From IMG/VR virus record IMGVR_UViG_3300031857_000001: a DNA stretch of 64,000 nucleotides. One strand, given 5' to 3'. Source of the DNA: a virus (taxonomy: Duplodnaviria; Caudoviricetes). The notes under the pieces are model-generated. The model was given only the letters and a program-made list of their open reading frames with translations. It was not told where the DNA came from and ran no database searches. Position 1 is the first letter of the stretch, and each line of letters begins with the position of its first letter. This document shows, one piece after another, positions 32,803 to 37,751 of this stretch. A program made the position numbers and the translations under genes.

Positions 32803-33028
32803 AAAAAACCTTATATCGATAAAACTGATGAGACAAGAAATCAGGTAATTAGAGATATGTTTAATACCAATAAAAAACCAATTACAAAAATGAAATACAA
32901 TAACAACACACCATTTGAAGAATTTATGTACCGTTTTGCGGTTGTATTTGGTATCACTGTAATAACTTTAAATCTAATTATTTTGGTTTTAAAGTTGATA
33001 GGTTAAGGTTTTTATCGTATATTTGTAG

Positions 33029-33042: not shown

Positions 33043-33128
33043 GCCCGGATGCTGAAATGGTATACAGTGCAGACTTAAAATCTGCTGAGCAATCGCTCGT
33101 GAGGGTTCGAGTCCCTCTCCGGGTACCA
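33043..33128 (+). tRNA. tRNA-Leu(UAA)
   Basis: GCCCGGA/TCCGGGT acceptor, GCAGA-CT-TAA-AA-TCTGC, long variable arm, encoded CCA. Confidence 0.95.
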
Positions 33129-33130
33129 AA

Positions 33131-33208
33131 GCACCTTTATCTCAGTTGGTTAGTAGAAGCTCGCTCATAACGAGAAGGTCACAGGTTCGAGTCCTGTAAG
33201 GTGCACCA
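33131..33208 (+). tRNA. tRNA-Met/Ile2(CAU)
   Basis: GCACCTT/AAGGTGC acceptor, loop CT-CAT-AA, TTCGAGT T-loop, encoded CCA. Confidence 0.9.
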
Positions 33209-33218
33209 GTTAAAACAT

Positions 33219-33363
33219 AGTCAAGTGGCGGAATACTGAGAGTCTCCGGAAACATACTCTCAAGGTAGACGTACTAGATGGTTATAGCACTAGGGGTAAA
33301 AAATCACAATGCGTGTGGTCACTATAATGACAGCCCGTGGAGGTTCGAATCCTTCCTTGACTA
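33219..33363 (+). ncRNA. Expanded tRNA-like RNA (145 nt)
   Basis: Perfect AGTCAAG/CTTGACT acceptor and GGAGG-TTCGAAT-CCTTC T-arm, but with a D-loop hairpin insertion, an irregular anticodon arm and a branched variable arm. Confidence 0.7.
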
Positions 33364-33530
33364 CTAAAATTTTTAATTTACTATGAATGGGTTAGAATTA
33401 TTGTTAATTGGTATTTGGGTTGGAATGGGACTTGTATACCTAATAACTAAAGATTTCTATAAGAAAAAATAATTTTAATATTCAAAACTTACGTATTATA
33501 TTTGTATCAATAATTTAAATTTATAAAAAT

Positions 33531-37119: not shown

Positions 37120-37191
37120 GGTCGGTTCATCTAAGGGTTAGGATACAAGATTTTCATTCTTGTCATAGGGGTTCGAATCCCCTACCGACTA
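37120..37191 (+). tRNA. tRNA-Glu(UUC)
   Basis: GGTCGGT/ACCGACT acceptor and CAAGA-TT-TTC-AT-TCTTG. Confidence 0.92.
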
Positions 37192-37331
37192 CAAAAAGTA
37201 ATATTTATGAAAAAGATGTTTATTAATACACATAGGGAAATAGAAAAAATACTTCACCCATTTGACCCGGTTGGATTTTACGTTCTAATACCTTTTATAC
37301 TAATCCTATTGTATCTGTTTACATAAAAAAT

Positions 37332-37453
37332 AGTCAGGTGGCGGAATGGTAGACGCAGCTGTGATGATTTTGTTGGAAGGTGAATCTCCTTAAACTATTA
37401 GCAAGGTTAATCAACTCCCAATCATCGTACAGGTTCGAGTCCTGTCCTGACTT
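37332..37453 (+). ncRNA. tRNA-like RNA lacking a canonical anticodon arm (122 nt)
   Basis: AGTCAGG/CCTGACT acceptor, class II-type D-arm GCG-GAATGGTAGA-CGC and ACAGG-TTCGAGT-CCTGT T-arm. The centre is a long GATGATT/AATCATC-closed branched arm. Confidence 0.7.
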
Positions 37454-37609
37454 CGCGTTCCGAAACAAATACAACGGATAGTGTGCCCCACACGAAGATA
37501 AACGGAGTGATGTCCGTAGGAGGTTTGGTATCACAGTAAGGCTGTGTACGACTGTTGACTAGTCGGCCCAAGAAAAGGTAAGAGTTGGTGGTACCTTGTT
37601 AGTTAATAT

Positions 37610-37683
37610 AGTCGGATAGCTCAGGTGGTGAGAGCGGCACGCTTATACCGTGATGGTCGTGGGTTCAACTCCCACTCCGACTA
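37610..37683 (+). tRNA. tRNA-Ile(UAU)
   Basis: AGTCGGA/TCCGACT acceptor, CACG-CT-TAT-AC-CGTG anticodon arm and GTGGG-TTCAACT-CCCAC. Confidence 0.85.
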
Positions 37684-37751
37684 CAACTGAAAAACTATAG
37701 TTCATATCTAACTCGCCATTTGTTTAAGATATTTACTATAAAACCTAACAA

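Follow-up and report, generated by a model that had tools for sequence, protein, structure and literature searches.

What is a 145-nt sequence that begins and ends as a tRNA, and carries extra helices where a tRNA has loops, doing among the tRNA genes of a large bacteriophage? The window that we analysed, a stretch of 64,000 nt, corresponds to bases 240417-304416 of a complete virus record of 321,403 bp with direct terminal repeats and a G+C content of about 32%. ARAGORN finds only five tRNAs in the whole phage genome; the element starts 10 nt after the tRNA-Met gene and shares one RNA-gene region of the phage with a GOLLD RNA, which Rfam detects in the window together with a tmRNA (43769-44146) and a group I intron that splits a tRNA. 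A preliminary description had listed acceptor and T arms, a hairpin in the D loop, a bulged anticodon arm and a variable region with two hairpins, and had taken the whole for a tRNA mimic under selection. The sequence agrees with each of these features and the minimum-free-energy fold reproduces every arm (Table 1); what had been overlooked is a 6-nt complementarity between the anticodon-like loop and the second loop of the variable arm. The stability of the fold is by itself ordinary (z = -0.74 against shuffled sequences), so that fold energy alone is no proof, and the case for a structure above chance rests on comparison.

Table 1. The tRNA-like element, its parts, neighbouring genes and other RNAs built on the same frame (window coordinates, except where a contig is named).
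Feature	Position	Strand	Observation
tRNA-like element, 145 nt	33219-33363	+	extent confirmed by sequence reading
Acceptor stem, 7 bp	33219-33225 with 33356-33362	+	7/7 pairs compensated, 98.6% of cells paired in 82 relatives
U8-G9, D stem 5' strand GCG, G13 A14 A15 U16 (start of a tRNA-Leu-type D arm)	33226-33236	+	nearly invariant in the alignment
Alpha-region hairpin of the D loop, optional; 7-bp stem (33237-33243 with 33256-33262), 12-nt loop	33237-33262	+	
A, G18 G19, UAGA, D stem 3' strand CGU, position 26	33263-33273	+	D stem 100% paired
Anticodon-like arm: 4 bp, invariant bulged A33278, 2 invariant bp, 7-nt loop (33281-33287)	33274-33293	+	
Loop segment UUAUAG, proposed partner of 33322-33327	33282-33287	+	6-nt Watson-Crick complementarity
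Closing stem of the variable arm, 5' strand GGGU, and A-rich single strand	33294-33304	+	
Variable-arm hairpin 1	33305-33317	+	sequence variable, stem kept; several unrelated stem sequences
Variable-arm hairpin 2: 4-bp stem, 6-nt loop CUAUAA (33322-33327)	33318-33331	+	minimum-free-energy fold, RNAalifold, covariation count
A, closing stem 3' strand GCCC, G, U48	33332-33338	+	
T arm: GGAGG, canonical 7-nt T loop, CCTTC	33339-33355	+	99.8% paired, 4/5 pairs compensated
Acceptor 3' strand and discriminator A33363	33356-33363	+	next bases CUA, CCA not encoded
TAnnTTTG promoter box, Bacteroidota-type	33020-33027	+	sequence reading; ahead of tRNA-Leu
Canonical tRNA-Leu(taa) and tRNA-Met(cat)	33043-33208	+	ARAGORN; Rfam tRNA 53.4 and 55.9 bits
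tRNA-Glu, tRNA-Ile(tat), tRNA-Cys	37120-38330		ARAGORN
Paralogue, type B	37332-37453	+	42.3 bits to R1, frame only
Types C, E, F and D on the same frame	L002:6307-6414, L005:7425-7533, L023:3737-3918, L218:1588-1693, L187:760-856		

Relatives of the element were retrieved by scanning contigs for exact patterns, three times in viral and once in metagenome sequences, which yielded more than 100 loci, and a covariance model (R1) was built from 30 of these, the sequence in the window included. R1 matches 84 loci at 72-137 bits, 82 of them distinct, and at least 54 of the matches, from the metagenome scan, lie outside the set from which the model was built. The copy in the window scores 120.7 bits, a match that holds by construction, and is the sole full match in its genome. 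Elsewhere in that genome, outside the window (G000:C1:73452-73557, plus strand), R1 aligns very weakly over its full length (10.6 bits, E about 5), probably by chance. RNAalifold, applied to 30 relatives, returned the same structure, with 19 of 31 pairs compensated. Across the 82 distinct relatives, standard pairs fill 98.9% of the cells, against 33-52% when partners are slid by one to three columns; compensatory changes are present in 22 of the 37 pairs, and none of 500 shuffles reached any of the observed measures. Covariation across relatives had been set beforehand as the test of the proposal that the paired insertions reflect selection rather than decay, and it upholds that proposal. We regard the element as almost certainly a real and conserved phage RNA gene. 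A blastn search of 50,697 GenBank phage records gave no match to it, and one fixed-pattern scan of about 185,000 prokaryotic species genomes, with both loops left free, found no copy of the family, only two chance matches without its features. As far as these searches reach, the family appears to be confined to uncultured phages, and no description of such an RNA was found in Rfam 15 or in the literature searched.

The same comparison bears on the idea that the locus is a decaying tRNA-Leu pseudogene, or a tRNA gene broken by introns or mobile insertions. Clear descent from tRNA-Leu, together with insertions, would favour it, as would the real group I intron in another tRNA of the window. However, the supposed insertions are the most conserved parts of the 82 sequences and they covary, while deleting them restores no canonical anticodon arm. 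At E values up to 10, Rfam gives only weak tRNA matches in 33150-33450 and no riboswitch, ribozyme or intron family; ARAGORN in intron mode, with lowered thresholds, can do no better than a forced, low-scoring tRNA-Arg fit with a 70-nt 'intron', and we rejected the intron reading. Decay or interruption thus conceived is, in our estimate, extremely improbable, and that part of the preliminary interpretation which saw a selected tRNA mimic rather than a pseudogene is retained on the strength of the covariation.

The arrangement of the family loci suggests how the RNA may be transcribed. In the window, the box at 33020-33027 is likely to drive tRNA-Leu, tRNA-Met(cat) and the element as a single unit. 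Across the family no tRNA lies within 250 nt upstream in 74 of the 84 loci, and none within 3 kb in 28; the element is therefore usually the first or the sole gene of its unit. A TAnnTTTG box stands 3-9 nt before the element itself in three relatives (L018, L043 and L007), and members of the family would seem to carry transcription signals of their own; another clade has a conserved upstream block with TTGACA. Where a tRNA follows downstream, Arg(tct) is the commonest; among all family neighbours, tRNAs with the anticodon cat are the most frequent (46 in 84 loci, including the type found at 33131-33208 in the window). An internal TATAAT (33323-33328) was also considered as a promoter and is an unlikely one, being without a matching -35 box and with the covarying positions outside the hexamer. 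On the other side of the element, 20 nt past its end, begins a 29-codon open frame of mostly hydrophobic residues (33384-33473, plus strand), the first bases of which recur after the element in contig L005.

Descent from tRNA-Leu is indicated by several comparisons. When a member without the D-loop insert is used as a blastn query, its only hits in the GenBank phage records are annotated tRNA-Leu genes of many cultured phages, reached through its first 33 nt or so, and the true tRNA that scores highest against R1 is tRNA-Leu, both in this phage and in T4. The element shares with class II tRNA-Leu (RF00005) the 7-bp acceptor stem, U8, the Leu-type D arm (A14, A15, G18G19 and A21), U48, the canonical T arm, a discriminator that is mostly A73 (so in 70 of the 82 members), a long extra arm and location in tRNA operons. 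The nucleotides that build the core and elbow of a tRNA are kept in the alignment (U8, A14, A15 with U48, G18G19 and the T loop), and a U precedes the T stem in every alignment row inspected, which fits an A15-U48 Levitt pair. A 7-bp acceptor stem with discriminator and a T arm with canonical T loop are features of any canonical tRNA, and the Rfam tRNA model does align the T-arm part of the element; the Leu-type D arm, the A15-U48 combination and the long extra arm are those of class II tRNA-Leu. At the 3' end, an encoded CCA is absent in every member inspected, and C nearly always follows the discriminator. Position 1 of the acceptor stem forms no strong pair with position 72 in 65 of the 82 members, which have a weak A-U, a G.U or a mismatch there. 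We consider it very probable that the element derives from tRNA-Leu and is L-shaped.

In its lower half the element departs from that model. It measures 145 nt against about 85 for a class II tRNA-Leu, and in place of a canonical 5-bp anticodon stem with a free 7-nt loop it has four pairs, a bulge and two further pairs. U33 and A37 are present in the loop, but positions 32 and 38 are both G; no Leu anticodon is found, the loop triplet being UAU in all 82 members, and this triplet is paired, in the structure we propose, to a 43-nt variable arm. That region (33294-33336) is a three-way junction made of a 4-bp closing stem and two hairpins. Neither of the standard tRNA finders calls the element: ARAGORN passes over it at default settings, and the Rfam tRNA model reaches 13.4 bits, with a cut-off of 29, and covers only the 3' half (33295-33363). 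Could it nonetheless be an unusual working tRNA that reads AUA and is charged with leucine or isoleucine? U33, the invariant UAU and a purine at 37 in a loop of 7 nt are what a real AUA-reading tRNA has, the neighbours of the family include tRNAs for further codons that end in A (Arg(tct), Leu(taa) and those with anticodon cat), and the genome has the low G+C content already mentioned. The stem of six pairs with a bulge, G at both 32 and 38, the branched variable arm and the complementarity, with covariation, of the loop to its own arm all stand against decoding, and the phage has a canonical tRNA-Ile(tat) for AUA. We judge the AUA tRNA to be quite improbable. Because the stem is bulged and longer than 5 bp, G occupies both position 32 and position 38, the arm is branched over 43 nt, the loop has an internal partner and a normal tRNA-Ile(tat) is available, we are fairly confident that the element would be non-decoding.

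Conservation is distributed unevenly over the molecule. In the anticodon-like arm, 99.6% paired over the 82 relatives, the four outer pairs covary strongly (one of them, for example, is A-U in 49 sequences, C-G in 22, U-A in 7 and G-C in 4), and two modelled pairs of variable-arm hairpin 1 show 23 and 19 double changes. Two relatives (L023 and L100) have substituted another complementary pair of 4-mers for the closing stem of the variable arm. The alignment shows hardly any variation in the bulged A, in the inner two pairs and the 7-nt loop that they close, or in the A-rich strand and hairpin 2; the A tract is invariant across relatives, though the search patterns partly fixed it. The invariant core of the family is the lower half of the molecule.

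Within this core, the segment UUAUAG of the anticodon-like loop is exactly complementary over 6 nt to the loop of hairpin 2, and all of its bases but G33287 are invariant (5 of 6). Among five loops of such composition, complementarity of this kind is expected by chance with a probability of 0.0007 for this pair of loops and 0.016 for any pair. In an alignment whose model was built without this helix, the loop-loop positions are 99.6% paired across 82 sequences. At least 78 loci have the standard combination UUAUAG/CUAUAA. Another 13 loci, with 8 distinct sequences, combine UUAUAA with UUAUAA, a switch from G:C to A:U, and a sister sequence (L119) keeps the G:C pair. A change from A to G in the first loop, with retention of a G.U pair, occurs in 3 loci of at least two clades; in the second loop there are two A-to-G changes that likewise retain G.U, one in 3 loci and the other in L023 only. 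The terminal pair alone is lost in 5 loci, and none of the loop combinations found breaks an inner pair. The helix is thus supported by a single compensatory pair, which may go back to one event in one clade, by three changes that remain wobble-compatible and by strict conservation. Part of that conservation is an effect of retrieval: pattern 1 fixed the first loop, the other patterns fixed the A tract, and some bases near the loops were likewise set by the patterns; the metagenome scan left both loops free. On this evidence from aligned sequences, the loop-loop pairing is probably real.

Whether the two loops meet in one molecule or in two is a separate matter, which covariation does not separate. 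A self-assembling RNA, in which the complementary loops of successive molecules pair head to tail to give dimers or closed rings with several tRNA-like heads, would be compatible with the covariation, and rough geometric reasoning suggests that a full 6-bp kiss between arms of one core may be strained. The loop core UAUA is self-complementary, and pairing of first loop with first loop between molecules is also conceivable. Loop-loop pairing assembles the pRNA of phage phi29 into rings, and GOLLD, one of which lies in the same RNA-gene region as the element, is reported to form multimers. Against this stands the weakness of the AU-rich loop-loop duplex, which we estimate at -5.4 kcal/mol. A variant RNA on the same frame (type D, L187:760-856) could join both loop segments in one plain hairpin stem, which would argue for pairing within the molecule; the minimum-free-energy fold, however, paired this region otherwise and did not recover the helix, and a pattern scan found no second copy of type D, so that it stands as a single case. 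A multimer of this kind appears rather unlikely to us, as does its further consequence, that an RNA-only ring encoded beside GOLLD could be a multivalent trap or platform for tRNA-binding proteins in infection.

The D-loop hairpin, the feature that had made the element look hyper-expanded, behaves differently from the lower module. It is present in 47 of the 82 members, always at one identical site just before G18G19 (in the window, inside the 3-bp D stem, between A14-A15-U16 and G18G19), and belongs to at least six unrelated sequence types; the remaining 35 members have a normal Leu-type D loop of 10-12 nt. The stem of the type found in the window does covary, A-U pairs being exchanged for G-C. 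Since the hairpin is optional and of several types, the hyper-expansion of the D loop is partly a clade-specific decoration. A search of the retrieved DNA for the Leu-type frame showed that its acceptor, D and T parts also enclose other centres. One such RNA, type B, is encoded in the window itself, 4 kb downstream of the element (Table 1); its first 26 nt are identical to those of a member of the family (L052), its D loop is normal, and its different central domain of 65 nt is closed by a 7-bp stem. Relatives of type B were found on 5 viral contigs and, judged by eye, an inner stem seems to covary. Types C, E and F come from related contigs, one of which, L002, has all three of types A, B and C. 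Because the frame is constant, the conserved centres change and inserts in the D loop are tolerated, this pattern suggests that the frame is a generic carrier and that the centre would do the work.

These observations lead us to our preferred reading, to which we assign a probability of roughly one half: that the element is a non-decoding, tRNA-framed payload RNA with the lower module as its working part. It would be the gene for a stable RNA built on a class II tRNA-Leu frame, in which the anticodon and variable regions have been rebuilt into a nearly invariant module made of a bulged 6-bp stem and a three-way-junction arm with an A-rich strand. The enzymes that process tRNAs would cut the RNA from its transcript, as for its neighbours, so that the tRNA frame would give it defined ends and stability; the earlier suggestion of a scaffold processed by RNase P/Z fits both the intact acceptor, T and D core and the place of the element, inside a tRNA operon or as its first gene. 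Decoding would then be prevented by the loop-loop pairing, the lengthened stem and the branched 43-nt arm, and the conserved lower module may bind a conserved partner, which could be a protein, a small ligand or a second copy of the RNA. In favour of a payload, the loops, bulge and A tract of the module are invariant, while the stems of the frame covary and its D loop takes unrelated hairpins.

The principal competitor of this reading places the function in the upper half. The acceptor, T and D parts could act as a decoy or sponge that sequesters or recruits a factor recognising tRNA shape or the tRNA 3' end, such as LeuRS, EF-Tu, a processing enzyme or a defence toxin that acts on the acceptor ends of tRNAs; the lower half, being locked, would then serve merely to avoid the ribosome. 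The retention of the full tRNA core and elbow nucleotides, the prevalence of an A discriminator, the origin of the frame from tRNA-Leu and the apparent masking of the anticodon loop are all consistent with such a role, and by the identity rules of E. coli LeuRS reads neither the anticodon nor the long arm. Yet conservation is highest in nucleotides of the lower module, which would be superfluous in a sponge; hairpins beside G18G19 in over half of the members (47 of 82) would, to judge from E. coli data, probably disturb recognition by LeuRS; the 1-72 pair is mostly weak or mismatched; and the same phage has other conserved modules on the same frame. A constant frame with changing conserved centres and a D loop that tolerates inserts is the main reason why we prefer the payload over the decoy, which we consider possible and clearly the less probable of the two. 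The narrower form of the idea in the preliminary description, a decoy for anticodon nucleases or uncharged-tRNA sensors, finds no support: a loop with G32 and G38, on a bulged 6-bp stem and apparently paired with the variable arm, is unlike a natural anticodon loop, and both the peak of conservation in the lower module and the presence of unrelated modules on the frame in the same phages speak against it.

The payload reading can be set against several RNAs already described. The nearest precedent in kind is the species 1 RNA of T4 (rnaC, 139 nt), for which the T4 record states no function. It is a stable phage RNA encoded beside tRNAs; its T arm is canonical and its closing stem acceptor-like, and its centre is not that of a tRNA. 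It differs in sharing no module with our family and in having no Leu-type D arm, and its score against R1 is that of ordinary T4 tRNAs (22.5 bits, compared with 72-137 for the family). In our data the T4 rnaC sequence is L223:1909-2047 (minus strand), the 3' part of which, about 90 nt, holds the T arm and acceptor-like stem. YrlA and other Y RNAs of bacteria and phages are also non-decoding, contain a tRNA-like domain and are often phage-encoded, and the ends of YrlA sit in the Ro-binding stem, not in an acceptor stem (Chen et al. 2014, PMC4201824). Our element has in common with them that it is phage-encoded, appears to be non-decoding and has a tRNA-like domain. Rfam gave no match of the element to YrlA (RF02553) at the gathering score or at E values up to 10, and no TROVE/Ro60 gene (PF05731) was found in the complete genome of this phage or in 20 further records with the family, of which 4 are complete, with a very diverged or a host-encoded Ro60 being conceivable; we rejected identity with Y RNAs on these grounds. 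The tRNA-like domain of tmRNA likewise joins an acceptor and T-arm mimic to a pseudoknotted RNA and decodes with no anticodon. The element is set apart by its length of 145 nt, by having no reading frame and by a 3-70 pair that is U-A, not the G.U of alanine identity; it has no match to RF00023, and the tmRNA of this phage is a separate gene.

Two further comparisons concern the concept more than the sequence. Ponchon and Dardel reportedly engineered a tRNA scaffold for RNAs, and murine herpesvirus MHV68 has tRNA-miRNA genes, in which viral RNAs are linked to tRNAs. In both, as in our proposal, an unrelated module that takes the place of the lower half of a tRNA owes its processing and stability to the tRNA body; those systems are engineered or come from a eukaryotic virus, whereas the element belongs to a natural bacteriophage family with a conserved module. 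If the payload reading is right, it would be a natural counterpart of the tRNA scaffold with a folded RNA payload, and the same phages would load several payloads on the frame. The pRNA of phi29, likewise a phage RNA, resembles the element in size, in its three-way junction and in two loops that are complementary to each other. It has no tRNA frame, and its loops pair between molecules in the ring of a packaging motor.

One protein family recurs near the RNA. At 55 of 91 loci the RNA is closely preceded, on its own strand, by a gene for a DUF932 protein (PF06067; for example L003:3620-4423, minus strand), and DUF932 is found in 10 of the 15 records with the family that were compared with 20 controls, of which 2 have it. 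The neighbouring proteins form two lineages that are only about 33% identical. This phage has one DUF932 gene, 98 kb away and outside the window (G000:C1:175286-175885). In the reverse direction the association is weak: the RNA lies within 2.5 kb of only 3 of the 80 closest DUF932 loci, and a tRNA within 800 nt downstream of 5. We therefore rejected DUF932 as an obligate partner and treat it as a lead only. Sequence searches found no DUF932 relative in the PDB; with an AlphaFold model (pLDDT 75), Foldseek returned nothing at E <= 0.001, and the best VIA-align Z score, 6.7, is within noise. The literature searched gives no function for the domain. In five large phage contigs (L241, L242, L244-L246) the DUF932 gene lies inside a long tRNA array, with tRNAs for Asn, Lys, Trp, Ile and others 57-280 nt downstream.

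Phage tRNA clusters have been a recognised source of unexplained stable RNAs since the species 1 and 2 RNAs of T4. The family described here suggests that the body of a tRNA-Leu can be reused as the frame of a conserved, pseudoknotted module that masks its own anticodon, and that a single phage can hold several such RNAs with different modules. It is widespread in uncultured phages, among them some with Bacteroidota-type promoter boxes and others with a different conserved block upstream, and it escapes tRNA finders and is absent from Rfam 15. Short, well defined and highly conserved, and reduced to about 117 nt in members without the D-loop insert, the RNA is suited to work on its structure and on its partners. 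If the tRNA frame does confer processing and stability, it would be a natural precedent for the engineered tRNA scaffold; and if the RNA is charged, or bound by a translation or defence factor, it would represent a new route by which phages interfere with the tRNA biology of their hosts.
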